Source: Escherichia phage Bp4. From it: a stretch of DNA of 64,000 nt. This document shows, in pieces, positions 1 to 64,000 of this stretch. Location: sequence record NC_024142.2. One strand, given 5' to 3'. Each line of letters starts with the position of its first letter. The stretch's first letter is position 1. Made by a program: the position numbers and the translations under genes. Below the pieces are notes generated by a model. It did no database searches. It was given only the letters and a program-made list of their open reading frames with translations, and had not been told where the DNA came from.

Positions 1-2
1 TC

Positions 3-9614: not shown

Positions 9615-9640
9615 ATAAAACTAAATGAACCACAGGAAAT

Positions 9641-15186: not shown

Positions 15187-15446
15187 GTATTGGTGATGTA
15201 ATTAAACACCAGGATGGTATGAAGTCGAATCAAGGTGCTTCACCTGTTGGTGCATTCCAGATTAACCAAGCTACTCTGAAAGACTTCGCTCCCAAAGTTC
15301 TTGGTTCAGATTGGCAAAGCCAGCCTCTTTCTCCTGAGAACCAGGATAAGATTGGTAAGGCTATCTTCGAGTCTCGTAAGAACGGTAACCTTAAAGATAC
15401 TTGGGCTGCTCTGCCTAACTCTACCCAGGTGCTTATAAGGATATGA
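15183..15446 (+). CDS. hypothetical protein
   Basis: ATG at 15183 overlapping the upstream stop (ATGA); 87 aa reading MSIGDVIKHQ...; ORF track gives 14991..15446. Confidence 0.4.
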   Translation: MSIGDVIKHQDGMKSNQGASPVGAFQINQATLKDFAPKVLGSDWQSQPLSPENQDKIGKAIFESRKNGNLKDTWAALPNSTQVLIRI

Positions 15447-22300: not shown

Positions 22301-25300
22301 CAAGTATTGGCTACCAACTTAGATGACCGTATGCGTGTGCCAATGAGCATCTATGCTCCTTCACAGGCAGGTGTAGCAGGTATTCCATTTATGACCATCG
22401 GTACAGGTGATGGCATGATGATGCAGACCCTTTCTACTATGAAAGGTGCTCCGAAGAATACCCTGAAAATCTTTGATGGTATGAACATTGGTATTAATGA
22501 CATTACTGATGCAAGCCGTAAAGCTAATGAGGCTGTATATACTTCCTGGCAGGGTAACCCTATCAAGAATGTTTATGACTCCTTTGCTAAGTTCATGAAG
22601 AACGTAGACTTCAGCAAACTGTCTGATGAAACCAAACAAGCTATCGCTAAATCTGCACTGGAATACGACCAACGTGAGGGTGCTACTGATGACCTGTTAC
22701 GTGTTGGTGCTGAACAGATTGAACGTAATCTGCGTAACATTGCTCTGGGTGTGGATATTCGTCATAAGGTAATGGACCAGGTACAGGTCACTGTTGACCA
22801 GATGGCTGCTGTTGGTGCTCCTTATGTGAACAACGGTAAAATCTCTCTGGAAGGTCTGACTGTAGACCAGCAAGTAGCTAAGCTGAACGAACTGTTTGAT
22901 GCTGAATTAAACAAGCGTCGTGATGCAGTACGTGCTGCTAAAGCAGAACCAGTGAAAGAAGTGCCAGCAATGGAACAGGTCGGTCGTGTACTGAAGTCTG
23001 GTGTACGTCTGCTGTCTAATGCTGCCATTACTAAACTGGCTAAAGAGATGTCCCCTGAACAACAAGCAGTACTGAAAGAAATACAGAAATCTCTTGCTGC
23101 TAAAGACTATAAGGTTGTTTATGGTACGCCTTCTCAACTGGATGCCTATGCTATTGAGAAGAACATTACTCGTCCAGCACCGGAAGATATTGAAGCTGCT
23201 GAAGCAGGTAATGCATATGGCTGGACTAACTTTGAAGATAAAACCATCTACTTAGTTACCCCTTCCTTAGAGACTCTGGTTCATGAATTGGTACATGCCT
23301 CTACTTTTGAATCTGTACTAGCTCACTACGAGGGTACTCCTAACGAAGCAGTCCAGAATATTGAAGACCTGATGAACCAGTTCCGTGCTCTTGATGTTAA
23401 GAATGAATCTCCGGCAGTACGTGAAGCATATGCCGATGCACTCAATACCATTAATGGCCACTTGTCCAATGGCTTTATTGAACCAGCAATGGCTAAAGCT
23501 GCTGCACTGAATGAGTACATGGCTTGGGGTTTAACTAACCGTGAACTTATAAGTAAGCAGAAGAAAACCACTGCACTTAAAACTATGGTTCAGGCTGTAT
23601 ATGAAGCAATCAAACGTCTGGTATTCGGACGTAAGAAAGCTCCTGCTAATGCAGATGATATGTTCTCTGGCTTACTGTTTAACTCTGCTGTAGTAATGCG
23701 TGGGCAGGCTCCTACTGCTGCTGTAGCCAAAGATACTACCTTGTTCCATAACAAAGCATACGGTGACAATACTCGTCTGGAAGAGCTAGGGAAAACCTTC
23801 GATAAGCTGATTACTAACTACATTGGTTCAGAACCAGTACAGCAAGTAATTCGTAAAGGTAAGTTCTCTGATGCAGTAGTAAAAGCAACTAAAGTAACTC
23901 GTGATGTTCAGGCTCATGGCTTCACCATGAATATGCAGGAACAGCGTCTCTTCACTAACATTGTTGCTGCACTAGCTACTGAGGCTGCTATTAACCCTGC
24001 TGCTATGGCTCGTGCACAGGAATACTACACGCATGTTACTAAGAACCTGACTGTTGAAGCGTTCATGGCTGACCCGGATAGTACTAACCCTGCTGACCGT
24101 TACTATGCACAGCAGAAGTTCGATACCATCATGGGTGCTAATAACATTGAGTTTGATGCACAGGGTCGTTCTTCCTTACTACCTACCTTTGTTGGTCTGG
24201 TAATGGTAAGTGAAGAAGTACGTAAGGTGCTGGCTGATATTTCTGTTATGAAAGCAGATAAAAAATCTGGCAATACTGTTGATGCAATGCTGACTAACAT
24301 CGGTACTGCTGCAATGGCTAGTCTGAATGCTCGTGTAGCAGGTGATACTAAAGCCACTAACGTACAGGAAGGTATGGATGCACTGGCTCAGACAATCATG
24401 CAGACCAGTCTTAACGCAGAATCCTTCTATGATTCCGTTGCTACTCCTACCGGTAATGCTATCGACCGTGCTAACCAGTATTTGGTGGACTCTATTGATG
24501 CATTGTCTACCCGTGCTTTAGAAGGTGCTCGTGAAGTTGCAGCTAATACCAAGAATCCATTGGTCAAAGGTGCTGCTCATGCTGCACAACTGGTAGCTGC
24601 TATTGCTACAGAGAAGAATGGTGCAATCGTAGCCGAAGGTGTTATGGCTGCAATGAACCAGGGTAAAGTATGGCAACCTTTCCATGACCTGGTTAATGAC
24701 ATAATTGGACGTACTAAGAGCAATGCTTCTGTATATGATTTGATTAAAGCAGTACGAGCACAAGTGCAGGCTGACCGTCAACAGTTCCGTGAACACTTGC
24801 CTACCACTATCGCATCCAAGTTCAGCCGTAAACTGACTAATGATGAGTGGAAAGCAATGCATACCGGTATGGGTAAAACTGACTTAGCTGTTCTGCGTGA
24901 CACTATGTCTTTGGATGAAATCCGTGACCTGCTGACTGACCAGAAGAATGTTGACCGTGAGGTTAATAAACTGGAAGCAGATTTGCAGAAACAAGCAGGA
25001 CGTAACTGGCCCCTGATTAACCGTAAATCTAAGCAACTGGCTCAGTATATGATTAACGGTACAGTCGGTAATAACCTGCTGCGTAATGCTACTGCAATTT
25101 CTCGTTTACTGGGTGAACGTAAGACTACACGTTCTGTTGTAGATGTAGCTCAGCTGGATAAACTGATTACCCTGTATGCACTGGAAGCAATGAGTAAGAC
25201 TGACCGTGAGGTGTTATCTTCACTGGCTCAGACAGAAGTTGAAGGCATGGACTTTGCTACTTCTTACCTGGTTGGTCAGCGTAAAGACGAAATGGCTAAA

Positions 25301-27085
25301 GCCAAGTCTGATAGCCGTGCAACCTTGAACCAGTACAAAGGATACATCCCAACTGAGAACAAACAGGGTGTTAACCTGATTGTTGCTGAAGATAATCAGT
25401 TTGCTGATTTGATTGAGAAATCCTATGTACGTCTTGGTACTTATCAGGGTAGCTCTGCTAACCGGGGTCCAGCACGTAGTTACTACTTTGCACCGGTACA
25501 GGCACAGGCTCCGTTCTCACAAGGTATCCTACAGAACGTTCGAAATACTGCTGGTGGTGTAGACCTTGGTACAGGCTTTACGATGGGAACCATGGTAGCT
25601 GGTCGTATTACTGACAAGCCTTCCGTAGACCGTATCACTAAAGCACTGGCTCGTGGTGAACGTGGCAATGAACCACTGCTGCCTGTATATGATGCTAATG
25701 GTAATGTAGTTGCTTATGAGCAATCTATTGACCCTAACATGCTGAAGCACATTGAGGGTGAGAATCATCTTGCTCGTGCAATCGGTGTATGGCGTGGTCG
25801 TCAGGTGGAAGAAGCTAAGGCTCAGCGTTTCAACGATATGCTAATTGAGAACCTGCATAGCATGTATGAGAACGACATTAAGATGTCTGCTTCTAATAAG
25901 TCCCAGTACGTTAACCTTCTTGGTTCTAAACTGGACCCAGTAACTGCCGATGCCCTTAAGCTGATGAACAGTGAAACTCGTCAGAAAGCAGAAAGTCTCT
26001 TTGGTCCAGGTGAATTGTGGGTGCGTCGTGACATGCTTAATGATGCTCTGGGTTATCGTGCAGCTTCTGTAGGAGATGCCTGGTCTGGTAATTCTCGTTG
26101 GTCACCAGAAACACTGGATACCTTCAAGAAAGCTATGTTGGGTGTATTCGGCAACCGTGCCTATAAGTATGTAATGGGTGGTGAGAACCTGGTTCAGAAC
26201 TTAGTTAAAGAAGCTAAGACCCTGATTGTAGTTAAGTCAGTAGTTGTACCTGCTGTTAACTTCCTGGCTAACCTTTACCAGATGGTTGCTCGTGGTGTAC
26301 CTGTTAAGAACATTGCTAAGAGCATCCCACAAAAAACTGCTGAGATTAACCAGTATCTGAAATCTCGTCTGCGTCAGGTAGATGCAGAAGCAGAATTACG
26401 TGCAGCTACTAACCCGAACCAGATTCGTAAACTCAAGGCTGAGATTCAGTCCATCTCTGATAGCCATAAACGTTTGAGTATCTGGCCTCTGTTGGAAGCT
26501 GGTGAGTTCTCTTCAATTGCAGATGCTGGTATTGGCCGTGATGACATCCTGATTACTGAAGGTAAACTCCACGAATACATGGAAAAGCTGGCTGATAAGC
26601 TGCCTAAGTCTGTTCGTAACGCAGGTCGCTATGCACTTATCACTAAGGATACTGCTCTCTTCCAGGGTATTCAGAAGACGGTTGAGTACTCTGACTTTAT
26701 TGCTAAAGCAATCATCTATGATGAACTGACTCAGCGTAAAGGTAAGACTCGTGAAGAAGCACTGGGGCGTGTAACGGAAGAGTTCATTAACTATGACCGT
26801 CTGCCTGGTCGATTCCGTGGGTATATGGAAAGTGTTGGTTTGATGTGGTTCTACAACTTTAAGATTCGTTCTGCAAAAGTTGCAGTGTCCATGATTCGTA
26901 ATAACCCAGTACATGCTGCTATGGCTATGTTGGCTCCAACCCCTACCATGTTTGGTAACGTTGGTCTTCCTATTCAGGACAACATCTTTAGTATTGCTGC
27001 ACAAGGCAATCTTGGTTACTCCTTTGGTTTCGGTCAAGGCTTACGTGCCCACAACCTGAACCCTTGGCTCAACCTTACTAACTAA
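16355..27085 (+). CDS. giant virion-encapsidated RNA polymerase (N4 gp50-like vRNAP)
   Basis: Single uninterrupted 3576-aa ORF (10.7 kb). This size is a hallmark of N4-like phages. Last gene of the late operon, followed by a strong terminator. Confidence 0.85.
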   Translation: MNRKHAMSTFDRLAGFADSITNAKQVDVSTATSQKQAAQGQSPFQLTPENAYNLQTGRVGNLGIGAFEPGSLQADFTQASPLEIINKYGNEQGLQILNSRANAADVVRQDLSKQRTNAEAFGDTLSGVGLGVANTLGGIAALGTGLVNDNAGASIASGLDWLNKGVHNLQSDALNARRNVVQNQNVISAQENEKLYKQDIAKGESELVASLSRIGRDAYDSVANTLSNDMAATDGLAEGVGSFFTGGPLIRGVSALGKVMVGGDKAVKGITLAAELGYRPARIAQTAGRVAAPAIAIGGMEAGGAYQQTANEIMEMPFSELAAKSPVYQQHIKDGLSPEEARRQTASETGITAAGLTAPVAALTAPLVSKFELNPLKVGSLAGAGSNMLRETVEEGIQSGTSQFAQNKAIQGNVDAERDLLKGVGEQTGLGALYGFGSAGVAQAPGATVKAAGAAVGPAVRTTLAGASLAGKALAKVASPITNILVQRGEEVAKRNEQASPVSDATVNAAAQEATAQAEQAQATVQEAVDAMDISPEEKAAATQYAADLTQAMKFDPVELEQTNPAIREAVSGSTNRVEAIQKMADLVNTAEDPNVQMEAAIQMYDNIMSMDSFINRDPGALANLEQGSPAAAIVDQFSGLMANVQNTPKVLRAFRAIHSMIQEQAEAGKLKATEEANQAQANNIAMAADVSPEVLDADSVNMVLKHASEGKITLGNRQRAALQSAAALLQGAREFDAKAEELGLRPQDIVSKQIKTDESRSNEGQYSALQHAKRIRSAYNSGNFDLASAYLSDFMKFAQHMQNKVGALNEHLISGNADKNKSVHYQALSPSREWVRSRTGLGVNPYDTKSVKFAQQVALEAKTVADIANALATAYPELNVSHVKVTSLDSRLNKPAAQVVKEFRQGGLDATQSQQTNEPVNQVDETPALVQEDTTTVQPKDKLVVENKTAPTKETSPKAEEVSTTESERDAYVKENTISQEILNKNGDRRESPWLFADGTVVGSNGDHISLSDVFGHDGYRDMSLDTGAIRSTFYKGSEQPFVSLQLFDNQKLTAEQFNTVQSFVEANNALIQVGVDTSGRNTNNVEKEEVSLAQLKADYTVGGKPLSEMETVFPVYNNDKTPNQFIKSFSLPEEPKSRTIGSESPLTDVKKALSSAARFEAFTQKENNALTSDVIKRYQDLFEFGETLKTTLSDRLAKFLANKNVGKRFAEGTEANRWVGGKLLNIVEKDGDTFKFNDQLLETAVLAGLQWRLTATQNAAVKDMKDVAAITGVEASLLPEGILADFENAQTLVEATNSLAQKIESYWGLNRNPNAPLGYTKGIPMAMATEILSSLIEMGEVKESMLDVSEIDPESNKTVGLYTIEKLDDNDAINKFPTAIEETVLLEPVEKLYLGDDIPSVAQTQLRNPAVKNTPEQKAALKAEQATEFRVHMPMVNFYEALGRDNILELMGAGALNPELLNVNTAKSLEGKNLSVSMAYDSLFGVINQIKEQENGLDTPIHYGYNMTRVGRMQMLGKNNPQSSKLVREAILPTFSTIDLSNENSQTFSDFQLGLAQALGIKVHKMSREVMSDELTKALEGKLKPAVDMMVEFDKSGHLPADAVDILKTSLGNDKSFVALMALMEYARYLNSDDRANFNTPLYVEADGVTNGPINAMVLMTGGKFTSDWIKNTAKGGLFFGKAGKTMNEHHSHEDSVDLYEASTNSLQQALNELRNNYRNNVPVTNQMKHLQKLMDLFIKDFNLNEDGTLDLKRGIAKNPLTITIYGSGARGIAGKMVSAITDTIYERFSDVLQARAADPSISPAMAMFGKEAASEADAQAMLDTFLTSMEALTGNVPVMRKGELSIQQVDGALTGKLDPQKFTVSGNALKNLQENMLHLFVEPMRTGIRNTVGEGLMYSTENLQKATQIQSLVLQDMFQQRVQEKLAEKEKDPTWKKGDFLTQKELNEIQASLSPLAPMIETGSQTFYIAGSENTDVANQVLATNLDDRMRVPMSIYAPSQAGVAGIPFMTIGTGDGMMMQTLSTMKGAPKNTLKIFDGMNIGINDITDASRKANEAVYTSWQGNPIKNVYDSFAKFMKNVDFSKLSDETKQAIAKSALEYDQREGATDDLLRVGAEQIERNLRNIALGVDIRHKVMDQVQVTVDQMAAVGAPYVNNGKISLEGLTVDQQVAKLNELFDAELNKRRDAVRAAKAEPVKEVPAMEQVGRVLKSGVRLLSNAAITKLAKEMSPEQQAVLKEIQKSLAAKDYKVVYGTPSQLDAYAIEKNITRPAPEDIEAAEAGNAYGWTNFEDKTIYLVTPSLETLVHELVHASTFESVLAHYEGTPNEAVQNIEDLMNQFRALDVKNESPAVREAYADALNTINGHLSNGFIEPAMAKAAALNEYMAWGLTNRELISKQKKTTALKTMVQAVYEAIKRLVFGRKKAPANADDMFSGLLFNSAVVMRGQAPTAAVAKDTTLFHNKAYGDNTRLEELGKTFDKLITNYIGSEPVQQVIRKGKFSDAVVKATKVTRDVQAHGFTMNMQEQRLFTNIVAALATEAAINPAAMARAQEYYTHVTKNLTVEAFMADPDSTNPADRYYAQQKFDTIMGANNIEFDAQGRSSLLPTFVGLVMVSEEVRKVLADISVMKADKKSGNTVDAMLTNIGTAAMASLNARVAGDTKATNVQEGMDALAQTIMQTSLNAESFYDSVATPTGNAIDRANQYLVDSIDALSTRALEGAREVAANTKNPLVKGAAHAAQLVAAIATEKNGAIVAEGVMAAMNQGKVWQPFHDLVNDIIGRTKSNASVYDLIKAVRAQVQADRQQFREHLPTTIASKFSRKLTNDEWKAMHTGMGKTDLAVLRDTMSLDEIRDLLTDQKNVDREVNKLEADLQKQAGRNWPLINRKSKQLAQYMINGTVGNNLLRNATAISRLLGERKTTRSVVDVAQLDKLITLYALEAMSKTDREVLSSLAQTEVEGMDFATSYLVGQRKDEMAKAKSDSRATLNQYKGYIPTENKQGVNLIVAEDNQFADLIEKSYVRLGTYQGSSANRGPARSYYFAPVQAQAPFSQGILQNVRNTAGGVDLGTGFTMGTMVAGRITDKPSVDRITKALARGERGNEPLLPVYDANGNVVAYEQSIDPNMLKHIEGENHLARAIGVWRGRQVEEAKAQRFNDMLIENLHSMYENDIKMSASNKSQYVNLLGSKLDPVTADALKLMNSETRQKAESLFGPGELWVRRDMLNDALGYRAASVGDAWSGNSRWSPETLDTFKKAMLGVFGNRAYKYVMGGENLVQNLVKEAKTLIVVKSVVVPAVNFLANLYQMVARGVPVKNIAKSIPQKTAEINQYLKSRLRQVDAEAELRAATNPNQIRKLKAEIQSISDSHKRLSIWPLLEAGEFSSIADAGIGRDDILITEGKLHEYMEKLADKLPKSVRNAGRYALITKDTALFQGIQKTVEYSDFIAKAIIYDELTQRKGKTREEALGRVTEEFINYDRLPGRFRGYMESVGLMWFYNFKIRSAKVAVSMIRNNPVHAAMAMLAPTPTMFGNVGLPIQDNIFSIAAQGNLGYSFGFGQGLRAHNLNPWLNLTN

Positions 27086-28198: not shown

Positions 28199-28426
28199 TT
28201 AGTAGCTTTAACGCAGCTAACGAGGCTAGGCCAGTTAACTATTACCACCGGTGCTTGTACCAGCAAACAGGATTGATAGTCCGATAATAGTTAACTGTAA
28301 TTGAGCATTATAGTCTGCTCATACTCACACCGTTAGGTATGTTTTCAATAATTAGAGTGCCGGACTGTCTCACCGGCATTGTCTTTAGAGTGCAATGCAA
28401 TCAGGACTATGTTCTCTATTAATAAG

Positions 28427-28500
28427 TACCCACTACTGGATTTGAACCAGTGACCTTCCGATTATTAGTCGGTTGCTTTCCCCGTCTAAGCTAAGTGGGC
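28427..28500 (-). tRNA. tRNA with apparent anticodon AAU (Ile-like), 74 nt, CCA not encoded
   Basis: Hand-folded cloverleaf on minus strand: acceptor GCCCACU/AGUGGGU, D-stem GCUU/AAGC, anticodon stem ACCGA/UCGGA with loop CUAAUAA, T-stem ACUGG/CCAGU with loop UUCAAAU. Confidence 0.55.
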
Positions 28501-29137: not shown

Positions 29138-29204
29138 ATTAATTGCCAGGGATTCCACCTGGTCCATCTGTTTTTATAGTCACTCAGATATCGTCTGGAC
29201 TGTA

Positions 29205-29282
29205 GGCATGGGTGGGAATCGAACCCACAAACCATTCAGCACTGTAGCCTCACGCTCTACCTATTTGAGCTATCACACACCA
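29205..29282 (-). other. tRNA-like element (good T-arm and D-arm, imperfect acceptor and anticodon stems)
   Basis: Minus strand: D-arm GCUC-AAAUAGGUA-GAGC and T-arm GUGGG-UUCGAUU-CCCAC; acceptor pairs 6 of 7; anticodon stem pairs poorly. Confidence 0.3.
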
Positions 29283-29572
29283 TTGATTAACTCCCCGTTT
29301 CTAATACACGGACGAGGACACTCCATGGTCGTTTGATAATCAGGACGACTCACTCCCGACTGACGCTTGGCTTATTAGGCTGCCATCAGAACAACATCAT
29401 CGTTTGCATTTATGTTATTGGTTCGTTTCTAAAAAACCGCATAATCGCTTACGAAAACTATCAAAGAGTACACTAAGCACAGGTAGCTACCCTGCCGTCT
29501 TCTCCACCTACACCGGCTACAGTGTAAACCTCCGCACGTTAGCTTAATGTACTCATTGATAGGATGTCAGTA

Positions 29573-29642
29573 GGTCGGGGGCTGGATTCGAACCAGCGAG
29601 AGAAGTAGCGACCATCTGCACATGCCTACGTGCTACCTCGAC
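29573..29642 (-). other. tRNA-like element (about 70 nt, short anticodon region)
   Basis: Minus strand: acceptor GUCGAGG/CCCCGAC (6 of 7), D-arm GCAC-GUAGGCAU-GUGC, T-arm GCUGG-UUCGAAU-CCAGC; anticodon/variable region 2-3 nt shorter than canonical. Confidence 0.3.
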
Positions 29643-30027
29643 CATTATAATAGGAGGGAGGGGACGAGTCCTCCCTTTATACCCTATATTGCATGTAAGA
29701 CCTAACAATTCGATGCTGTAGGTAGCTATGCTATCCGACATTTAACCCAGCCATATAGGGCTTATGTGATTAAAATGCTCAACATTGAGCGGTTAGTTTG
29801 ATAAGGGATCTGAAGCCTTATCCCAAAGATACTAACCTTTGGGATATAGCCTATCATTCAGAAATGGCCCCTATAGGGAGAGGCCATTGATTAACCCGAA
29901 TGTTGCTTTACATTTTCTGTGATAACCCATTCTTAAAATAGTTTACCTGACGGATGGGGGCCACCCCTAGCGTCAGTGCCATACGGCAAAGATTAAGTTA
30001 AGAAAGGTTATGATAGGAGTTCCTATC

Positions 30028-33110: not shown

Positions 33111-35003
33111 TTATTTGCCAGCGAAGCGTTTAGCCACGGTGACCATTACGGTTGCATTCAATTCATCATCTGGTAATGGATTAGCCAGTTTCTTATTGAA
33201 TGAGTGGACGGCTTGCTGTACTTGGGCAAAATCCCAACCACTGTCAACCAATGCCAGTGCGTACTTAATCATTTGATTATTACGATTACCGGTAGCAATA
33301 CGACTAGCGAACCAACGCTCCAGATTATCCAACGACTGTACTTCCTTCATCTGGTTCTGGAACTGCTCGTTCTTACTAGTACGAGGAATAAAGTCACGCA
33401 CGTCCAACAGATTTGCTTCAAGATTGTAATGATAGGAACCAGTCTCACAGGACATCCATTTCTTGGCTCGCTGGTTAGCAGATTCATCCGTTTCGAACGG
33501 TAGCCAAGACATAACGTTATTCATAAACTCTTTGTATTCCTCAGTGTCGAGGTGTAACTCATAGTTCATTGGAATAATCAGTCGGAAGCGGTTCTCTTCA
33601 TCAGAATGACGTTTAGTGGTATAGGTCATGAACTTATATTCCTTCATCAGTTCATGGCACGTATGCAGTGGTACTCCACCATCACAGTCAATAACAATCA
33701 TGTTAAATCCTGGAATAACGTTCTCTTCAGAACGATGTCCATTCTTCATGTGATGGTTTACCCAGTGCATACCGGGAGCTTGGGTTAATACATGCAACTG
33801 GTCGAACGGTACACGTTCACCAATGTAGTCATAAGCAAAGCTATCACTATATGCCACTATCATCTCATTGATGTCAGTTTCTTTCAGAGTCTCACCACGG
33901 AAGAACTCAATACCTTCATTAAAAGTCTTCTTAATGATGATGTGCTGTTTGTAGCCCCATGCTGTAGCAAGAGTCATCATCTCATTACGAGCTGCATTGC
34001 CACTCTTATAGAATGGCAATGACTCCACCAAGTCAGCATGAGTTACTTCTTTACCTACAGAAGCAATGTATTTAGCCAGCTTCACATAAGCCTTCTCACG
34101 ATTGAGGATTGTCTGGAATGCTGCTCCAGATTCTTCTACAAGCAGAATTGCTTGTTTAAGGTGAGTCATCTCAATGAATGAACTCTGGTCAACAAACGCC
34201 AGTGCTCCTGCCAGTTTAAGTGCTTTGAAATAACGGTGGGAAATTTCAGCTTTACGAATTTCTTCGTGGTCAGCCATAGCTTCTGCTTGTTTCTCACAAT
34301 CAATTTTGTAAGCAATCAGAGCAATACCCACTGCATCTTCCACAACCATCTTAAAACCAAACAGGTTTGGATCAGCCAGACTATGGAAATGGTTAGCCCA
34401 CTTACCAAGAGTCTGTACGTTATCTTGTTTAATCAAGTTACGGTAGATTTCTTCCGGGGTTAGTGTTGCATGTGCTCTTTTGTCTAAGTGACCAGTGGCA
34501 AACAGACAGCGACGTGCATACCCTATATCAAGAAAGCCATAGAACTGGTCTTCAGTCTGACCACCATCCAGTAGCTTACTTGGTGTACCAAACAGCAGCA
34601 GGTTAGTTGGAGTTTTGCCATCCAATTCTTCACCACGAACGCTTTCAGCAGTATTCTTGGTTAGCTTCTGTTTTACTTTTCCCTGGTCATATAACTCCAG
34701 GAACAGGGTTAGTACATCCATGTTAGCCAACAGGTTCGAACCAATTTCATCAATCTGAAGATTGATTGAACCACATCCAGCCATTAATAGTTTATGGCGT
34801 AGTTGTTTAACTGCTGGTGGAGTACCTGAGTCAAACGTAAACGGATATGCCCCTGCACGTTTATACTCTGCCTCAACTTTATCAAACTCTTCCTGCTGGT
34901 CAGTACCCTGCCGTGCAGAGCGTTCGTTAGCAATCTTCCATAGACGATCATTTGCAATGACGGGCATGGTGTCTTCCATAAAGCGTTTACGGAAGCCAGT
35001 CAT
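33111..35003 (-). CDS. putative DNA primase / primase-polymerase-like protein
   Basis: 630 aa; acidic motif VIDCDGG; position between ATPase and nuclease genes resembles the N4 primase locus. Confidence 0.4.
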   Translation of the reverse strand: MTGFRKRFMEDTMPVIANDRLWKIANERSARQGTDQQEEFDKVEAEYKRAGAYPFTFDSGTPPAVKQLRHKLLMAGCGSINLQIDEIGSNLLANMDVLTLFLELYDQGKVKQKLTKNTAESVRGEELDGKTPTNLLLFGTPSKLLDGGQTEDQFYGFLDIGYARRCLFATGHLDKRAHATLTPEEIYRNLIKQDNVQTLGKWANHFHSLADPNLFGFKMVVEDAVGIALIAYKIDCEKQAEAMADHEEIRKAEISHRYFKALKLAGALAFVDQSSFIEMTHLKQAILLVEESGAAFQTILNREKAYVKLAKYIASVGKEVTHADLVESLPFYKSGNAARNEMMTLATAWGYKQHIIIKKTFNEGIEFFRGETLKETDINEMIVAYSDSFAYDYIGERVPFDQLHVLTQAPGMHWVNHHMKNGHRSEENVIPGFNMIVIDCDGGVPLHTCHELMKEYKFMTYTTKRHSDEENRFRLIIPMNYELHLDTEEYKEFMNNVMSWLPFETDESANQRAKKWMSCETGSYHYNLEANLLDVRDFIPRTSKNEQFQNQMKEVQSLDNLERWFASRIATGNRNNQMIKYALALVDSGWDFAQVQQAVHSFNKKLANPLPDDELNATVMVTVAKRFAGK

Positions 35004-35320
35004 GAACCCGTCTTCAATGATATTACTGAGTGACCTTTACCGAAACCAGATGTAGCCAACGCTATAGCGTAGATGTTTACCGGCAGGTCACCACGATCTT
35101 TAGTTACGATGGTTGCACCCATGCAGGATGCCATTTTAGCCAAGAAGTAGGCTACTTCGACACGGAAAAATCCCCGGTCATTATTCTGGGTTTTATTGCA
35201 GAGCACATCTACGATTTCTTCAATCGCCGGATGATGCACTACTCCGGTAAGGTCAATACTCATGATGGAAAATATCTCTCTCTTTGTTTGCAAATGGACG
35301 CGACAGGGCAGTATAGACAA
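35000..35320 (-). CDS. hypothetical protein
   Basis: 106-aa ORF; stop overlaps downstream start (ATGA). Confidence 0.4.
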   Translation of the reverse strand: MSILPCRVHLQTKREIFSIMSIDLTGVVHHPAIEEIVDVLCNKTQNNDRGFFRVEVAYFLAKMASCMGATIVTKDRGDLPVNIYAIALATSGFGKGHSVISLKTGS

Positions 35321-36240
35321 CGCTTAACCTGCCCCTCCACGACCTTGATAGCACCCTTGCCACCTTTTTCAGCCATGAAGATACGAGCAGATGCCATATC
35401 GTCAAATTTTTTGGTACTTCTGGCTCCAGGTACATCTACCTTAGAAGCATCAGAGAAGTATTTGAACTGTGGCTCTGTTCGCCACAACTCCTCATCAGTA
35501 CATTCAGGAATTTCCTCTTCTGGTGCATTCCAGTACTTCTCAATGAGGTGAATCTTCTCTTCTACCCAACGTTCAGTCTTCTCAACAGATAGCAACGGAA
35601 TATCCTTATGCATAATACGATTAGCAGGATAGTTTGGATTGCTATTAGCCATATGCTTCATGAAGTCAGTGAAGATGTAGTTAATACGGATTACATCCTC
35701 GGTAATGATGTCGTTGTGAATCCAACGGTACAAGCTGCCTTGCATCTTGTGTTCATCATCACGGGAACCAGCAACCCAGGAATAGGTTGAGGTAGACTTA
35801 AAGTCCTGCAACAGACCTTCTGTTACGATGTCGAACTTACCACCGATAGTCCAACCCTTAACTACCCTGGTTCCACGCTGTTCAATGTAGATTGGGATAA
35901 GGTCAGGGTTAGCATCAAAGTCTGCTTTGGTTGGGTTAATAACTACTGCATCAATTACTCGTTGAGGATAACCCAACTTCTTCAATGCAGTCTTATGACC
36001 CAGCTTCCAGGCTTTCTCGATAGAATCATGTAAACCAGTACCCATTGATGTGGAGACGAAATCCATAACATCAATTGACTGATCACTTAAATCTACACGA
36101 TGCTTCATGACGATTTGCTTAATGGGCTTAAGCAATGTGGTAACAGACAGATACTTAGGGTTATCTACATAGTCATAATCATCCGTTACAAGCCATACAG
36201 CTAGTGCAAGACTAACGTCGTGTTTGTTGGTAAGTTTCAT
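35260..36240 (-). CDS. PD-(D/E)xK-type nuclease with C-terminal Cys cluster (Cas4/RecB-like exonuclease, putative)
   Basis: Motif GGKFDIVTEGLLQDFKSTS (D...D/E-x-K) and C-terminal RCLYCPVASICKQ. Confidence 0.45.
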   Translation of the reverse strand: MKLTNKHDVSLALAVWLVTDDYDYVDNPKYLSVTTLLKPIKQIVMKHRVDLSDQSIDVMDFVSTSMGTGLHDSIEKAWKLGHKTALKKLGYPQRVIDAVVINPTKADFDANPDLIPIYIEQRGTRVVKGWTIGGKFDIVTEGLLQDFKSTSTYSWVAGSRDDEHKMQGSLYRWIHNDIITEDVIRINYIFTDFMKHMANSNPNYPANRIMHKDIPLLSVEKTERWVEEKIHLIEKYWNAPEEEIPECTDEELWRTEPQFKYFSDASKVDVPGARSTKKFDDMASARIFMAEKGGKGAIKVVEGQVKRCLYCPVASICKQRERYFPS

Positions 36241-36734
36241 AACAGTCCCAATTGCTTATTAGTTTTAGCAAACTCACCATAATGAGTTATAGCAGCTTCA
36301 TCATAGAGAACAGCAGCTTCTCTTGGGTCATCTGTAAAACCTAATGTAATTGGTTTACTGTTAACCCAAATAGTTGCTCTGTATTTACCTAAATTCTTTG
36401 AAAAGGATACCCCCTTAAATCCAGATGTGTTTGTTTTAGATAAAACAGCACTCTGGTTATTCTGCTTGTGGGTCGCTTCTCTGAGGTTATCTATCCAGTT
36501 GTGATGGCGAATATTGTCCTTATGGTCAATCCTATCCGTAGGCCATACACCGTGCACATAGAACCATGCAAGGATATGCCCATAGTACAACACACTATCT
36601 ACACGGAGTTGAACGTAACCACTCTTCATTAGGTAACCAGATACCTTTCCGGTATTCCTACGAGTAAAAATCCCGGAAATAGGGTCATAACTAACAAGCT
36701 GTAAAAGCCTGTCATGGGCAATCCTCTGTTTCAT
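36237..36734 (-). CDS. HNH homing endonuclease with AP2 DNA-binding domain
   Basis: HNH motif DHKDNIRHHNWIDNLREATHKQN plus AP2-like GVSFSKNLGKYRATIWVNSKPITLGFTDDPREAAVLYDEAA. Confidence 0.8.
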   Translation of the reverse strand: MKQRIAHDRLLQLVSYDPISGIFTRRNTGKVSGYLMKSGYVQLRVDSVLYYGHILAWFYVHGVWPTDRIDHKDNIRHHNWIDNLREATHKQNNQSAVLSKTNTSGFKGVSFSKNLGKYRATIWVNSKPITLGFTDDPREAAVLYDEAAITHYGEFAKTNKQLGLL

Positions 36735-37282: not shown

Positions 37283-37587
37283 TATTTCTCCTTGGGAATC
37301 ATGTTTGCCTGGAACTCTGGTTCAGACATCAGACCCAGGTTGCTAAGAGACAGATAAACGATGTCTTTCAAGTCAACTGAAGTGTCGAAACGCTGGTCCA
37401 GACTGATTTTCAGAGAGTGATTGGCACGAGCCAAATCTTTATAGGTCACGTAAGGTTCATCTGTGAGCAACATTGTGTTCATGGTAAGCAGGGAACCATC
37501 ATCCACTTTAGGGAGTTGGAAGACTACCTGTGCTGCTACCATCCAATGATATTTTCTGACTACAGTTTCTTTAGTACTTTTGGTCAT
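37282..37587 (-). CDS. hypothetical protein
   Basis: 101-aa ORF. Confidence 0.4.
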   Translation of the reverse strand: MTKSTKETVVRKYHWMVAAQVVFQLPKVDDGSLLTMNTMLLTDEPYVTYKDLARANHSLKISLDQRFDTSVDLKDIVYLSLSNLGLMSEPEFQANMIPKEK

Positions 37588-38078
37588 GCGAATGCCTTTT
37601 GAATTATTTGATGAACTTCTTCTGGGGTAGCGTGATTTGGAATTTCAATCTCGTTAGCCCACGTTGGGTAAAACAAGGATAGTTCCCCACCCAAACCAAC
37701 TTCTGGGTGAGCAATATCAGGATGGTCTTGCCAGTTAACGGCTTCAACCAAGTGCTTGTTCGTGAATTGCAAAGTATCCATGTTGTCACGAATCATGAAG
37801 TACTGAGCATCATGAATATGAATACTAGGACGAATATCTAACCTGAACTCACTGGCTCTGACTTTACGCATAAACTCTGAACCAGCACGGTTATTTAGTA
37901 GACACCAGCTTTGCCCTAAAGCATTACCAGCAGTTCTGCCTTCTGCTTCTGCTTCATACGGAGTCTTACATGTCCCACGTAATACTTGAGCCAGTAAAGG
38001 AGTACGCACTCTCAAACCGAATGCGGCAGTAACATAACCAGTTTTGGCAGCTTCGTCTAGCTTAGCCTGAACCCACAT
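37584..38078 (-). CDS. family A DNA polymerase, C-terminal fragment (palm, motif C region)
   Basis: Contains GYVTAAFGLR and IHIHDAQYF (motif C-like HD). Frame is protein-like upstream to about 38150, where it meets the middle fragment. Confidence 0.75.
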   Translation of the reverse strand: MWVQAKLDEAAKTGYVTAAFGLRVRTPLLAQVLRGTCKTPYEAEAEGRTAGNALGQSWCLLNNRAGSEFMRKVRASEFRLDIRPSIHIHDAQYFMIRDNMDTLQFTNKHLVEAVNWQDHPDIAHPEVGLGGELSLFYPTWANEIEIPNHATPEEVHQIIQKAFA

Positions 38079-38086
38079 GTCGCTAA

Positions 38087-38560
38087 CTACATAGAGGTCG
38101 TGATAACGTTTCTCTGTAGTCTTAGCCTTCTCTTCTGAGAAGCCACAGTTTTCATTAAGCCCATATATGTACCACCATAGGTAAGCAGGAAGGTTGGAGC
38201 CTTCGAGTCACTACGCAATGATTTGTACTTATGCTGAATGGAGTTAATGGATTCTACCGTGTCTTCTATGTCCGGCATCTGCTCACCAAAGTAAGCATAT
38301 GCACGAAGACTGTGACCATCATAACCATCGGTATATACCTTGAGCTTCTGCGGATCTTTAGTAGTTAAAGCTGAGATACGGTCTTCAAGGCTTGCAAAGT
38401 CCAGTCCACAAAAGATCCAACCCGGTGGTGCTTCGAAGCATTTCTTAATCTTCTTGGCGTATTTGGAACCAGATGGAATGGTTTGCAGGTTTGGCTCAGA
38501 GGCAGATAATCTACCAGAAACCGTTCCCCCAAATTGAGGTTGCCGAATAGGTAGTGCCAT
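38087..38560 (-). CDS. family A DNA polymerase, middle fragment (motifs A and B)
   Basis: TVSGRLSASEPNLQTIP and GLDFASLEDR (motif A), KAPTFLLTYGGTYMGL (motif B-like); separated from flanking fragments by -1 frame changes. Confidence 0.8.
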   Translation of the reverse strand: MALPIRQPQFGGTVSGRLSASEPNLQTIPSGSKYAKKIKKCFEAPPGWIFCGLDFASLEDRISALTTKDPQKLKVYTDGYDGHSLRAYAYFGEQMPDIEDTVESINSIQHKYKSLRSDSKAPTFLLTYGGTYMGLMKTVASQKRRLRLQRNVITTSM

Positions 38561-40050
38561 CCATCCGGACCAGGTTGGGCATTTCTAAAGGCCGGGATGA
38601 AGCTAGTGATAATCTTATCCACAAGCTTATAGTCGATAAGCGCATTGAGCAGTTCCTTAACATCTTCGCTCTGCGTATGTGTACGCAGTGCTTTAATGGT
38701 GTCACCATCAGTAGCAGGTTGCTTACTCTTAGTAAGACCAAGAACCGGTAAGCCAATATAGTCAAATAACAGCTTCTGTAATTGTGGACCGGAGTTAGGA
38801 TTAAACTCGATGTCACAATCAGCAAGCGTTACCTGTTTCTTCTTGAGCTTAGCATTCTTATCATCTACCCATTCCTGACGAAGCATCAGGGTGAAGTTCT
38901 TCATGAGCTTAGACTCACGAATAGTTTTCAGAGCCTGGTTCCTGTCAGTTTCCATCTCCTTAGCTACTTGGTTAACGGTATCCATATTCATGGGCATACC
39001 GGTTAACTGCATCTGGATTATGTCTTCACATGCTGGTTTAAAGATGTTGTTGTAAACATCTAATTGGTCATCAGCAATGAGAGTATCCCAGTGCTTCTCA
39101 TAGGTGTACCAGGTACACAAACCGTCAATGAGGTTGTAGCGTAACAGTTGCTCATTAGGAATAAGACGAATGTCTTTAATGTCATCCTGAGCATAGTTAC
39201 CAGCATACTCCTGAGCCTGGTCTTTTAGACTAAGGTGATTACCAGCACAACTGTTAGTAGCCAGGTAGGTGATTAACTTAGTACAGTCCCAGTTGCGTAG
39301 CATGATTTCCATACCATGCAGTAAGCCTTCTGTATCAATCAGGTTATCCATGAATAACTGATAGATAAGCACATACACGTCGTAGCTAATGTTGTGATAC
39401 ATCTGCCGTTGAGTGTACTTAATGAAGAACTCACGAAGAAGATTTCGAACAACATCATTTCTGTTGATACGCCCGTATGGTGCTTCAGTAGCTCCAGGAA
39501 TCGGCTCGTAGTCCACATTAAAGGCTATGCCTTGTGTCTTACTCCAACAGAACGTAATTGTTCCTATACCTGCGTTATAGTGCTTTAAACCGAATGCCTC
39601 GATGTCTATAGCCAGTGGCTTATTCATCTCAAGCAGTTGGTCTAGCCAGGCTTTAATCTTCTCTGGGGTATCTGGATAAGCCTCAAACTCAATGATTCCC
39701 TGACCTGGTTCTGCATACTGCCCACGTATGTGGTTAAGTAATGCATCCATACCCTGAGCAATCTTAGATTTCACTACAGGAGGGTCATAAAAGACCTGTC
39801 TGTAGCTAGGTGCATAGATAACCTTCTGCTTACCCCATACTGAATCACAAACGTAGCCGAGGTTAGCCTCTGCTTTTGCTTCTTTAGTCAGTATTTTGAA
39901 GTAGTCAGAATCGGTACAGATAATGTATTGAGTCTCTGCATCGTCCAGTACTTGTTGCAACTCCTGCTGTATGAACTCCTTAATCTCCCTTGCAGGAGTC
40001 TTCTTCTTGCCGGGGGCAGAATGAAGTTCGATGAAGATGAAATCTTCCAT
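38365..40050 (-). CDS. family A DNA polymerase, N-terminal fragment (3'-5' exonuclease domain and fingers)
   Basis: Exo I motif LAIDIEAFGL; sequence PDGWHYLFGNLNLG just before the frame break resembles the conserved region preceding TGRLSS in Pol A enzymes. Confidence 0.8.
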   Translation of the reverse strand: MEDFIFIELHSAPGKKKTPAREIKEFIQQELQQVLDDAETQYIICTDSDYFKILTKEAKAEANLGYVCDSVWGKQKVIYAPSYRQVFYDPPVVKSKIAQGMDALLNHIRGQYAEPGQGIIEFEAYPDTPEKIKAWLDQLLEMNKPLAIDIEAFGLKHYNAGIGTITFCWSKTQGIAFNVDYEPIPGATEAPYGRINRNDVVRNLLREFFIKYTQRQMYHNISYDVYVLIYQLFMDNLIDTEGLLHGMEIMLRNWDCTKLITYLATNSCAGNHLSLKDQAQEYAGNYAQDDIKDIRLIPNEQLLRYNLIDGLCTWYTYEKHWDTLIADDQLDVYNNIFKPACEDIIQMQLTGMPMNMDTVNQVAKEMETDRNQALKTIRESKLMKNFTLMLRQEWVDDKNAKLKKKQVTLADCDIEFNPNSGPQLQKLLFDYIGLPVLGLTKSKQPATDGDTIKALRTHTQSEDVKELLNALIDYKLVDKIITSFIPAFRNAQPGPDGWHYLFGNLNLGERFLVDYLPLSQTCKPFHLVPNTPRRLRNASKHHRVGSFVDWTLQALKTVSQL

Positions 40051-40169
40051 GCTTAGGTCATTAGGCAGCAGGTAGGTTTAATCATCTCCTCCCTTCGGAT
40101 TTGATGACCGAGGATAGCAATAGGATACTTACCCGTATCCTGAGAGGTGATGTAACGCATAGCCTTACC

Positions 40170-40700
40170 TTAGAAAATCAGATGGGAAGCTGCATAGTAC
40201 TCAATAGAGGGAAGAATCTTCTCATACTGTTTTATTGCCATAGGATCACCAGCAAGTGTCCAGGCTGCTTCACGAGTACGTGGCAGTTCCTTGTACTTAC
40301 CAGTCTGGTCCTGGGCTACCAGGCATTCAGGTAAAGCATCACGTACATCCTGATAGGACATACAACCACGAACCAGGCGATATACAGTCTGGTTCACAAG
40401 GTGTACTTCCATAATCAGGCGACTGGAGGCTTTCAGATACTTGTCCATTGCAGGCCAAAGTTCTGGATTAAGTGTTAATCGTTCACCGTAGGTTGGAGGT
40501 CTGGCAGCATTAGAACGCTGATAGAACTCCCCTTGATAAAGAAATCCAGCCGATATATCAATACCATTGATACGGTCGTTCTTATCAATGATACCGTTTA
40601 ACACACTATCAAGACGAACCAGTTCTGCTAAGAACAGGTGTTTGACTATCTCACTGCTATTGGCAACCTGACCAATAGTCGCTGAACCAATCTGAGGCAT
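40170..40700 (-). CDS. hypothetical protein
   Basis: 176-aa ORF upstream of DNA polymerase. Confidence 0.45.
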   Translation of the reverse strand: MPQIGSATIGQVANSSEIVKHLFLAELVRLDSVLNGIIDKNDRINGIDISAGFLYQGEFYQRSNAARPPTYGERLTLNPELWPAMDKYLKASSRLIMEVHLVNQTVYRLVRGCMSYQDVRDALPECLVAQDQTGKYKELPRTREAAWTLAGDPMAIKQYEKILPSIEYYAASHLIF

Positions 40701-44950: not shown

Positions 44951-45196
44951 TTAGTTACCTTTCAGTTTATTTAGACGATTACGGTAGAGGGACTTAAACC
45001 CAGGAATATCCTCTGGATTCTTCTTAAGGTGTTTGACCAAACTACCTAAGTCCAGCGTCTGTAGGATGTCATTTTTATTCCAGCTATAACTGAATAATTC
45101 TTTGTAATCATTAAGTATTTTAAAGTACTTATGATTACGCGGATTAGTCATTATTGCATATGGCTCTAAGTCATCCACTGACTTAATACAACCCAT
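44951..45196 (-). CDS. hypothetical protein
   Basis: 81-aa ORF. Confidence 0.35.
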   Translation of the reverse strand: MGCIKSVDDLEPYAIMTNPRNHKYFKILNDYKELFSYSWNKNDILQTLDLGSLVKHLKKNPEDIPGFKSLYRNRLNKLKGN

Positions 45197-45297
45197 TTCA
45201 ACAAGTTTTTCTTTGTTGTCGTGTGGTCGATTCCGTAGAAAGTCATATGCCCATTCATATTCTGGTTTAAAAATCAGATTCTGTAATGGTTTGAAGG

Positions 45298-46680
45298 TTA
45301 GACCAGTATGTCTAGGATTTCCCAGTATTCCCTGTCATCCAGTCCTACGTATTCCAGAATACCAATACGGTGTTCAGTAACATATTTCTTGAAGCCTTTA
45401 CTGGTAATAACTGGCATCAGCTCCATAAAGCGAACATCATCAATGTGGATAGCACCTCTCCGTTTGGCCTTGTTAGCTTCGATTTGATTACGGCAGACAA
45501 CAGTCTCTGCTCTCATCTCATCAGATAACTCATACCATTTCCACATGGTTCCAATTCGAGCAGTTACTGGGCTACCTGAACCAACCTGATTGGCTAGTAC
45601 GTAGTACTTAGGTTGCTCTACTTCAACGAAACCAGACTTATCATGGCGACTTGGGTCTGCAAATTCCTTCTGAATATAAGGCTTTGGTTCCCAATCCCCA
45701 TTTTTATTCCGTATTTGGGTAGCACCAAGAACTGCATTCAATGAAATCAGAGAATTAGTTTTACCTCCTGCCTTGGTTTTATTGGCAGCGATTGTCTTAG
45801 ACCGTTTCTCAGCAGCTATCTTAGCTTTCTCTCTACGGAAGTTAGTTGGTTTGTCCCACTCATTATATTGAGTAAGGTCGATTACCCGATAACCCATAGC
45901 AGTGAACTTAGCCACAGCTTCTTCTGCTGCACCCTTCTTAGGTCCAACGACGTGAACAAAAGCTGTACGCTCCAGGTCACCTCGATCGTACTCAGGGAAG
46001 TACGAGAAAGAGTCTGCACAGTCAGACAAACGTCGGGTAACTACAACGTTTTTGGTAGTGAATATGCCAATACTTTGGTGGGAGTTATTGTATATCCTAA
46101 AGTAGTCAGTAAGTTTACCTTTTACCAAGTCAACACGGTTACCTTGATTCATTATGTAACCAGACCACTTAATACCAGAGGTTTTCAAAGCAGCCAGCTG
46201 AGGTAAGTGCAGATGGCGATATACTAATTCCGAGAATGGGGAGTATGTACTTTCTTCACGAGTATCCTTAAGAGCACGCATAGCCTTACCATACAGTTTC
46301 TTAAGACCTGCGTATTCAGGACGAGCTAATAATGCCTTATTGGATAAATTACGCCAGTGCTTGATGTAATGCTTACGTTGCTTAGCCCACAAACTAGAGG
46401 ACATATAGCGTTGAACAGTTCTGTCTGTAACAGCACCCAGGAATGATGGATACTCCCAGAAGCGAGTAGAGGATTTAGAAGCATATTCTTCAACCTGCTT
46501 AATGGCTTCAGGAATCTTAGCCTTAATCTCTTTCTCCATACGGTCTACTAAATCTACACATAGAGTAGTAATACCATCGTCGGTTAACTTCTGGTTAGAC
46601 AGCGTTTCTCGACTAGGAGCAATAGCTAAAGTGTCTGGTGCAGCCTGAACTACTAGATTAGAAGCACCAATAATATTCAT
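45298..46680 (-). CDS. rIIA-like protein, C-terminal part
   Basis: 460-aa ORF; its frame is open and protein-like for about 40 codons upstream of its ATG, overlapping the end of the GHKL-domain ORF. Confidence 0.5.
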   Translation of the reverse strand: MNIIGASNLVVQAAPDTLAIAPSRETLSNQKLTDDGITTLCVDLVDRMEKEIKAKIPEAIKQVEEYASKSSTRFWEYPSFLGAVTDRTVQRYMSSSLWAKQRKHYIKHWRNLSNKALLARPEYAGLKKLYGKAMRALKDTREESTYSPFSELVYRHLHLPQLAALKTSGIKWSGYIMNQGNRVDLVKGKLTDYFRIYNNSHQSIGIFTTKNVVVTRRLSDCADSFSYFPEYDRGDLERTAFVHVVGPKKGAAEEAVAKFTAMGYRVIDLTQYNEWDKPTNFRREKAKIAAEKRSKTIAANKTKAGGKTNSLISLNAVLGATQIRNKNGDWEPKPYIQKEFADPSRHDKSGFVEVEQPKYYVLANQVGSGSPVTARIGTMWKWYELSDEMRAETVVCRNQIEANKAKRRGAIHIDDVRFMELMPVITSKGFKKYVTEHRIGILEYVGLDDREYWEILDILV

Positions 46681-46697
46681 GAAGTTGAGGATAAGGC

Positions 46698-47516
46698 CTA
46701 CAGCTTCTTCACTAGCTGGGCTGGATACAATTGGTACATTACATTACCGTAGCGAACGTATATGTTACTGCTACCCATATAGCCTTGATACCATCTATCA
46801 GACATATCATATGAACCAGGTTCAAATGGCATGCCTAGTGTATCCAGTAGAGTGTAGTCGCCTTGTTGAATACTATTACTCTCGTCTGTTCTAATGAGTT
46901 TGGGAGTACTTAGCTCAGCTTTAATTTCACCGTTAAACACAATTGATTTGATGTAATGAATAAAGGTATTTAAATCATGTTTGCCTAACTGGAATTTAAC
47001 TTCCAGACCAGATTCCTCAGTAGGAATACCAGTAATAATAGGAACAATACCAGGCTTACCATCATTCTCAATTGCAGCCTTAGCTACGTTATATACCGAC
47101 ATCTTCCCCTGGTTCCATGAAGTAACCTGGAAGCTATCTGTATAAGCGAATGGAGATTTACATCCCAGACCAAAGCCACCAGTAGCACTACTGTTGGCTT
47201 TCTTAGTAGATGCACCATAGACACCATAAATGGAACCAATGAGTTCATCTGGAATACCACTACCGTAATCACGGAAGGTAATAAAGTTGTCTGTATCAAT
47301 GGTGATACGAATAGGGGTATCAGTTTTACCTGCCTCAATATGAGCATCCCAGCTGTTACATATAGTCTCACGAACTACTGCCAGAGTAGGATTGTTATAC
47401 AGGGAAGTACTTAATACATGGAAGAATGCCGGGTCATCAGAGATGCCAAAGGCAATTGTTTCTTTGCCACCCAGTGTCGCTGAGGTAGCTATTTCGTTGG
47501 TATCTGCAACTAACAT
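46698..47516 (-). CDS. rIIA-like protein, N-terminal GHKL ATPase-like domain
   Basis: GHKL boxes: ETICNSWDAH (N-box), FRDYGSGIPDE (G1), GGFGLGCKS (G2). Confidence 0.6.
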   Translation of the reverse strand: MLVADTNEIATSATLGGKETIAFGISDDPAFFHVLSTSLYNNPTLAVVRETICNSWDAHIEAGKTDTPIRITIDTDNFITFRDYGSGIPDELIGSIYGVYGASTKKANSSATGGFGLGCKSPFAYTDSFQVTSWNQGKMSVYNVAKAAIENDGKPGIVPIITGIPTEESGLEVKFQLGKHDLNTFIHYIKSIVFNGEIKAELSTPKLIRTDESNSIQQGDYTLLDTLGMPFEPGSYDMSDRWYQGYMGSSNIYVRYGNVMYQLYPAQLVKKL

Positions 47517-50972: not shown

Positions 50973-51479
50973 TTATTTACTGCTTCTTGCAGCTACTGGT
51001 TTGTTTTCCTGGTTCTGATACTTGCCATTGTAATTAGCAGGTTCCTGAACCAGATGAAATAATACTTGAGCTATCCCAGAACCAGCCGGGATATGCAGTT
51101 TCTTACGACCGTGATAGACAAGTTCGAGGGTAAGATACCCTTTCCATCCTGGTTCTATTACGGTATTGAACACAGATAATGCACGTCTTGCCCAGGTAGA
51201 CTTATCGTGAACGATGGCTACACAGGAAGGAGACATGTTGAACTTCTCAATTGCTGAAGCCAATGTGAACTTACCGAGATGGCGTGATACTTGATTTCCA
51301 TCAACGACTTTCACCATTGGAATCAACCCAAATAAGCGATAGAAGGTAATATCTTGTTTGATACGAATATCATAACCAGCTTCACCCAATCCATAGCTTA
51401 CACCATGCTCGGATACCTTACGGTCTGGGACATCCAGCAACTGAGATGAACGATAAAGAGAATTACCATTAACAACCAT
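50973..51479 (-). CDS. dCTP deaminase / dUTPase-family protein
   Basis: Motifs VSYGLGEAGYDIRI and PAGSGIAQV resemble the dCTP deaminase/dUTPase fold; 168 aa. Confidence 0.5.
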   Translation of the reverse strand: MVVNGNSLYRSSQLLDVPDRKVSEHGVSYGLGEAGYDIRIKQDITFYRLFGLIPMVKVVDGNQVSRHLGKFTLASAIEKFNMSPSCVAIVHDKSTWARRALSVFNTVIEPGWKGYLTLELVYHGRKKLHIPAGSGIAQVLFHLVQEPANYNGKYQNQENKPVAARSSK

Positions 51480-51997
51480 TATTTCATTCCTTTAGGGATA
51501 TGAACTACCTCCCCAAAAGGTACGGTAGCATTAGGATTATTCAGAACACACCAGATGATAGGAATATCAAATGGTAATTCTTTCATTGGGCGAACATACA
51601 TATCGGAGAATATGATTGCAGCGGTTGGCTTATTCTTAATAATCCAATCACGTACTGGTTCAAGGCTTGTACCACCACGACCAGTAATCTTAATCTCTTC
51701 AAAAGTATCTTCTTCAGTGATGTCTATTTCTTCCTGGATAATATCGTCGAAGGTAATTAGTGACATCTTCTTAGGATTGAACTGACTTTTAACGTAGGCG
51801 ACTTCTGAGTTAAAACGCAGAGAGTCAGCACTACTAATAGAACCAGATACATCCTCAAAGTAGGCTAAGTGACGTAGACGTCCTTCATCATCTTCTAAGG
51901 AAGGTAGATAGATGTCAGTGTAACGACGGTTGGGTCTGGCCCACGTATAATGTGTGTCATCAATGTCGGTAAAAAGTTCATCAGAACTTCCTGCCAT
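51479..51997 (-). CDS. von Willebrand factor A (vWA) domain protein
   Basis: MIDAS-like DVSGSIS and GRGGTSL motifs. Confidence 0.55.
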   Translation of the reverse strand: MAGSSDELFTDIDDTHYTWARPNRRYTDIYLPSLEDDEGRLRHLAYFEDVSGSISSADSLRFNSEVAYVKSQFNPKKMSLITFDDIIQEEIDITEEDTFEEIKITGRGGTSLEPVRDWIIKNKPTAAIIFSDMYVRPMKELPFDIPIIWCVLNNPNATVPFGEVVHIPKGMK

Positions 51998-52051
51998 GGA
52001 ACCACTGGTTTAAGGAATTGGGTAATAACCTCTTCCATACGACCAGCACCT

Positions 52052-63857: not shown

Positions 63858-63899
63858 GATGATAGCTCCAATAGTTGATGATAGGACGACATGTCCATA

Positions 63900-63914
63900 A
63901 CATGCGGAGCATGT
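63900..63914 (-). promoter_or_regulatory. hairpin promoter candidate (N4 vRNAP-type), ACATGC-GGA-GCATGT
   Basis: 6-bp stem, GGA loop, same GCGGAGC core; about 45 nt upstream of the gene starting at 63857. Confidence 0.45.
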
Positions 63915-64000
63915 GTAACGTGTAAGGTGGGGTAGGGTAGTGGCTACACCGTCAACATACCGGGGGGGATGGTTGAGTGTAAGGGTGTAGCCCCAGCCAC

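Follow-up and report, generated by a model that had tools for sequence, protein, structure and literature searches.

The DNA polymerase gene of Escherichia phage Bp4 is broken only on paper: its apparent breakage is a sequence-record artefact and not a biological feature, and the gene encodes an ordinary family A DNA polymerase of the N4 gp39 type. As judged from sequence comparisons, the artefact almost certainly arose through under-calling of homopolymer runs, and neither recoding nor a split gene is involved. The Bp4 record carries systematic under-calls, with one base missing from many homopolymer runs. Three of these missing bases fall in the gp39-type gene, each producing a -1 change of frame, such that an 859-codon gene is seen as four open reading frames (ORFs). 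The real phage would, by inference, make a normal single-chain polymerase.

The window analysed comprised the final 64,000 bases of the Bp4 record (72,583 bp). Bp4 is an N4-like phage of the genus Gamaleyavirus, and is cited as NC_024142.2, a version number that implies a revised record. A search of a phage collection identified PD38 as a 99.9% match, with Bp4 itself absent from the hits. PD38 is classified in the species Gamaleyavirus Bp4 (family Schitoviridae, N4-like), and a 64-kb alignment showed that its positions 1-64033, when reverse-complemented, correspond to the window. The polymerase region (window 37400-40200) was aligned with PD38, EC1-UPM and St11Ph5, and the three breaks were compared in seven independently assembled relatives (i.e. 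PD38, EC1-UPM, St11Ph5, PhAPEC7, PD205, ST4 and ZQ2).

The first-pass annotation had described a family A polymerase spanning 37584-40050 and divided by two -1 changes into three ORFs with Pol A motifs. These ORFs were recovered on the minus strand at the expected positions, with lengths of 561, 157 and 164 aa, and the motifs occurred in the order LAIDIEAFGL (561-aa ORF), SGRLSASEPNLQ and GLDFASLEDR (157-aa ORF) and IHIHDAQ (164-aa ORF). Alignment to N4-like relatives located the breaks in three short runs (Table 1). Both of the breaks already described were confirmed, the one attributed to a C5 run by the alignment to PD38 and the one bracketed at about 38135..38152 by a T4 run lying within that bracket. 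The count of two breaks and three ORFs was too low, as a third deficit is present further upstream in the gene and there are four pieces. The extent of the gene was also misjudged, its start having been set 110 nt downstream of the actual one. The correct start codon, the ATG at 40160-40158, precedes the ATG at 40050 by 37 codons; this position is based on the annotations of PD38, EC1-UPM and St11Ph5, in which the CDS starts ~110 nt upstream of 40050. Frame analysis showed that each junction is a -1 step and that the original frame is regained after all three. As recorded, the gene has 2577 nt as compared to 2580 nt in relatives (i.e. 3 bases short), and an intact polymerase ORF is absent from the Bp4 record as deposited. 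Two of the pieces are deposited as Bp4 'DNA polymerase' and were matched exactly, namely piece 2 (AJB43748.1/YP_009113225.1) and piece 4 (AJB43747.1/YP_009113224.1).

Table 1. Features of the polymerase gene in the Bp4 window (positions are those of the window)
Feature	Position	Strand	Basis
Whole DNA polymerase gene, N4 gp39-type, family A	37584..40160	-	Alignment with PD38 CDS 23857-26436
Piece 1, true start and first 35 codons, premature TAA at end	40053..40160	-	Sequence read, frame analysis
Break 1, T3 run on + strand (A3 on coding strand)	40077..40079	.	T4 in all independent relatives
Piece 2, 561-aa ORF: putative 3'-5' exonuclease region (Exo I-like DIE), start of polymerase domain	38365..40050	-	
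Break 2, C5 run on + strand (G5 on coding strand)	38526..38530	.	Alignments to relatives
Piece 3, 157-aa ORF: SGRLS/PNLQ, motif A (DFASLEDR), motif B (KAPTFLLTYGG)	38087..38560	-	
Break 3, T4 run on + strand (A4 on coding strand)	38149..38152	.	T5 in all independent relatives
Piece 4, 164-aa ORF: candidate motif C region (IHIHDA) and C-terminus	37584..38078	-	

Addition of one base to each of the three runs generated an open frame of 859 codons, whose product was 100% identical to the PD38 protein AXY81328.1 and read EEMIKTYLLPN, NLNLGGTVSGR and GLMKNCGFSEEK over breaks 1, 2 and 3, respectively. The repaired protein gave a single match to PF00476 (DNA_pol_A) with a score of 132.6 bits against a cut-off of 34.3. 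This match extended over residues 432-751, crossing both break 2 (~residue 544) and break 3 (~residue 670). The separate fragments covered consecutive positions of the PF00476 profile (i.e. 11-95 for piece 2 and 115-232 for piece 3), and a profile search with piece 4 alone returned no Pfam match. The best solved relatives of the repaired protein were Pol I enzymes (7r0k at 1.4e-29, Taq and Klenow). Motif A (D..S.E.R) was present as GLDFASLEDRI, aligned with ADYASMELVV of 7r0k, and motif B (K...F...YG) as RSDSKAPTFLLTYGG, aligned with RQKAKVVNFALIYGG of the same structure. A candidate for motif C (HDE-type, in the palm), IHIHDAQ, lies in piece 4, past the point (profile position 302 of 381) at which both the Pfam and the PDB alignment end. 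An Exo I-like (DxE) sequence, LAIDIEAFG, was also present, and no Pfam match to an exonuclease domain was obtained at E ≤ 0.01. Orthology to N4 gp39 was evident from the annotations of relatives, the gene being named gp39 in St11Ph5 and 'similar to DNAP gp39 from N4' in PhAPEC7. The gene neighbourhood is shared with PD38 and consists of a helicase, a 176-aa protein, the polymerase and then two small proteins.

All seven independent relatives carried the extra base at all three polymerase sites. The run at break 2 was C6 in PD38, EC1-UPM and ZQ2, and the other independent relatives had one additional base in a different run context. In relatives lacking inserts, the polymerase match spanned 2804 bases as compared to 2801 in the window. 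No substitutions separated PD38 from the window across the 2.8 kb polymerase region, the only differences being the three single-base deletions in the window. For the wider set of deletions described below, the more distant ZQ2 (~93% identical) had the PD38 allele at 23 of 25 alignable sites. The remaining two sites form one A8 run, which was A7 in ZQ2 and A6 in the window.

Over the entire 64 kb, the window and PD38 differed by three substitutions and 34 single-base gaps. All 34 gaps were deletions in the window with no insertions (sign test, p = 1e-10), and 33 were inside runs of at least two identical bases. The fraction of PD38 runs affected was 0.0004 for 2-mers, 0.005 for 3-mers, 0.016 for 4-mers and 0.024 for 5-mers, reaching 0.28 for 6-mers, two of four 7-mers and the sole 8-mer. 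Thirty-one of the deletions lay outside the polymerase gene. In terms of placement, 21 were in 12-13 annotated genes and 13 were intergenic. At least 12 genes were broken, including a primase-like gene (630 aa plus a fragment in the window), rIIA and two large structural genes; an 884-aa structural gene was present as 378 + 441 aa, and a 654-aa structural gene as 288 + 151 + 278 aa. Intergenic deletions caused no tRNA damage, the same three tRNAs being predicted in the window and in PD38.

A phenomenon specific to the polymerase was considered and rejected, as this gene was not enriched for deletions (3 observed versus 1.1-1.4 expected, P = 0.10-0.16). The distribution across the window was nonetheless uneven. 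There were no deletions in the 10.7 kb vRNAP gene versus 3.8 expected (P = 0.02) and none in the late structural block versus 4.9 expected (P = 0.007), whilst a single 2-kb gene contained five versus 0.65 expected (P = 0.0006). This patchy spread is unexplained by a purely uniform error and may reflect uneven coverage or partial manual correction.

One further genome, Uz-1 (OP312987.1), contained the same three breaks at 92% identity across the polymerase, which is annotated as two CDSs with lengths equal to those of the window. Taken by itself, this would count as independent confirmation. The Uz-1 record is 72,583 bp, exactly the length of Bp4, and differs in length from PD38 at 41 positions. 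Alignment of the window with Uz-1 positions 8584-72583 ran through 64,000 columns without a gap and with 3,811 mismatches, whereas the alignment of ZQ2, which is at a comparable distance, fell apart into more than 20 blocks and opened ~100 gaps, whether PD38 or the window was the partner. The deletions also conflict with the tree of substitutions: PD38, with three substitutions, lacks all 34 deletions, but Uz-1, with 3,811, shares every one. In Genome Detective, a RefSeq reference guides the joining of contigs. The deposited Uz-1 consensus appears, on the basis of these alignments, to have been laid out in Bp4 coordinates with the indels of Bp4 kept. The genome announcement for Uz-1 reports MiSeq (Illumina) reads (SRR21162442), assembly with SPAdes and use of Genome Detective, and names Bp4 among the closest relatives. 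Because of the identical record length, the gap-free 64-kb alignment, the contrast with ZQ2 and the conflict with the substitution tree, the breaks in Uz-1 are not independent evidence and this genome was rejected as a confirmation of the Bp4 sequence.

The first-pass annotation had offered two readings of the breaks, single-base deletion errors or a defective genome copy. The former was upheld by the extra bases in PD38 and the 31 further deletions, and the latter was not needed. A defective or degenerating genome copy, in which the deletions are real mutations and the polymerase is dead, would accord with the lack of an intact polymerase ORF in the deposited record. This reading is very improbable given that a ratio of 34 deletions to no insertions to three substitutions, combined with a steep dependence on run length, is the signature of a measurement and not of a selected mutational spectrum. 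Furthermore, simultaneous frameshifts in the polymerase, a primase-like gene, two large virion genes and others would have prevented the propagation of a plaque-purified lytic phage, and PD38 is intact but otherwise identical.

An accurate sequence would instead require that three programmed -1 ribosomal frameshifts, or transcriptional slippage, restore the frame at each run. All three shifts are indeed -1 with a return to the original frame, and the coding strand has AAU UUG GGG GAA at break 2, within which U UUG GGG is a formal match to X XXY YYZ; a -1 slip at this site would yield NLGGTVSGRLS, as in the intact gene. The presence of the same breaks in Uz-1 would also fit, but Uz-1 is a non-independent record. 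No slippery sequence was found at break 1 (AUU AAA CCU) or break 3 (AUG AAA ACU), where the P-site codons following a -1 shift would be UAA and GAA, respectively. The 75 nt downstream of the three breaks folded no better than shuffled sequences (z = -1.57, -0.66 and -1.74; 13-44 of 200 shuffles were as good). Moreover, every independent relative encodes the polymerase in a single frame, and PD38, one of these, has no substitution in the gene; deletions of the same type occur in 11 other genes and at 13 intergenic positions. Transcriptional slippage was rejected since the runs comprise only 3-5 bases, far shorter than those reported to give such slippage. Recoding at all three runs is exceedingly unlikely. 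The narrower proposal that the Bp4 sequence is correct for at least one run, most plausibly U UUG GGG at 38526-38532, and that the replicase needs -1 slippage there, merits equally little credence. If a reading based on -1 slippage were true, Uz-1 would represent a second natural example.

Natural division of the polymerase into separate genes in the Bp4 lineage would be in keeping with the two polymerase CDSs annotated in PhAPEC5/7, PD205 and ST4 and with a protein cluster whose members are mostly 859 aa but include shorter ones of 654, 605, 323 and 276 aa; it is scarcely credible and was rejected after checking PhAPEC7, PD205 and ST4, as the splits in relatives are due to insertions of 668-843 bp whose window positions (38324/38333, 38417 and 38489) all differ from those of the frame breaks, whilst the window is collinear with PD38 without an insertion and the Bp4 fragments match successive stretches of a single Pfam domain. 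The PhAPEC7 insertion is annotated as an intron with an HNH endonuclease. Homologues split at the same points had been named as a potential indication of separate genes; no relative was frameshifted at these points except for the non-independent Uz-1, and the natural splits are intron/HNH insertions located elsewhere.

The practical importance of homopolymer under-calling in Bp4 concerns data quality and is without biological import. Truncated fragments of the Bp4 polymerase are present in NCBI and UniRef as 'DNA polymerase', and Uz-1, a second GenBank genome, appears to have taken over the Bp4 indels base for base. Scans for recoding, split genes or pseudogenes will be misled by both of these records.

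Comparisons with known systems place Bp4 among error-prone records with homopolymer under-calling, in that its deletions are free of accompanying insertions, linked to runs, dependent on run length, found in both coding and non-coding DNA and absent from a near-identical genome. The Bp4 deletions differ in being patchy, as vRNAP and the late structural block contain none. Programmed -1 frameshifting, as in E. coli dnaX or the G/GT tail chaperones of phages, shares with Bp4 the direction of the shift and one site that fits X XXY YYZ, but differs in that two of the three Bp4 sites are non-slippery, significant downstream structure is lacking and the shift is not conserved, the independent relatives being in frame. 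The intron/HNH-interrupted polymerases of PhAPEC5/7, PD205 and ST4 resemble Bp4 in having the same gene annotated in two parts, but are split by 0.7-0.8 kb of inserted DNA within the motif A region, whilst Bp4 has no insertion. The closest counterparts are the gp39 DNA polymerases of Gamaleyavirus/N4-like phages and the PD38 DNA polymerase I (AXY81328.1), whose gene is identical in nucleotide sequence to that of Bp4 save for the three single-base deficits in Bp4.

Single-base homopolymer deletions of the type found in the polymerase gene, defined as bases absent relative to the near-identical phage genome PD38, introduced frameshifts into at least 11 further genes of the window. The distribution of these deletions was patchy. 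The virion RNA polymerase gene (10.7 kb; 16373-27085) and the late structural block (1-11195) were free of deletions, as compared to 3.8 and 4.9, respectively, expected from run content, while five were present in a 2-kb gene at 14320-16279. Uneven coverage or partial hand correction is perhaps the source of these patchy errors. Four deletions (29162, 29752, 29757 and 29960) were located close to, but never inside, three predicted tRNA genes (anticodons aat for Ile, aca for Cys and cgc for Ala), for which the PD38 predictions were identical; the deletion at 29162 was the sole example outside a run.

Features of the window associated with frameshifts, tRNAs and a homing endonuclease
Feature	Position	Strand	Observation
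Further frameshifted genes	33111-35263, 11197-13850, 14320-16279, 44951-47516, 51479-52414 and others		
Primase-like gene			Frameshifted, single-base homopolymer deletion
Large structural genes (n=2)			Frameshifted, single-base homopolymer deletion
rIIA			Frameshifted, 2 deletions
Thymidylate synthase stop/next-gene start			Affected, single-base homopolymer deletion
Hypothetical genes (several)			Frameshifted, single-base homopolymer deletion
Predicted tRNA genes (n=3)	28426-28500, 29202-29280, 29572-29643	minus	CDS-free stretch
165-aa ORF	36237-36734	minus	Three genes downstream of polymerase

All of the Bp4 homopolymer deletions were also present in the related phage Uz-1, in which the same genes are split. 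Alignment of the window with positions 8584-72583 of the Uz-1 record (OP312987.1) produced 3,811 mismatches and no gaps, and the Bp4 and Uz-1 records are of exactly equal length (72,583 bp). The Uz-1 sequence thus looks like a consensus set out in Bp4 coordinates, by which errors of the reference would have been carried into a second GenBank record. The end of the window (63590-64000) exhibited similarity both to Uz-1 positions 1-411 and to the Uz-1 end. This double match is consistent with the reported Uz-1 terminal direct repeat of roughly 0.4-0.5 kb. It also agrees with the window reaching the end of the Bp4 record.

The 165-aa ORF located three genes downstream of the polymerase has a counterpart in Uz-1 annotated as an 'HNH homing endonuclease' (498 nt), and a shorter 'homing endonuclease' is annotated at this position in PD38. 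The HNH genes of the independent relative ZQ2 are located elsewhere in the module, indicating that homing endonuclease content is variable among these phages. Within the polymerase gene itself, insertions of 668-843 bp were observed in the motif A region of the relatives PD205, ST4 and PhAPEC7, at three different points within ~170 bp (equivalent to window positions 38324/38333, 38417 and 38489). The PhAPEC7 insertion is an annotated intron encoding an HNH endonuclease. The motif A region gives the impression of being an insertion hotspot for mobile elements in this gene.
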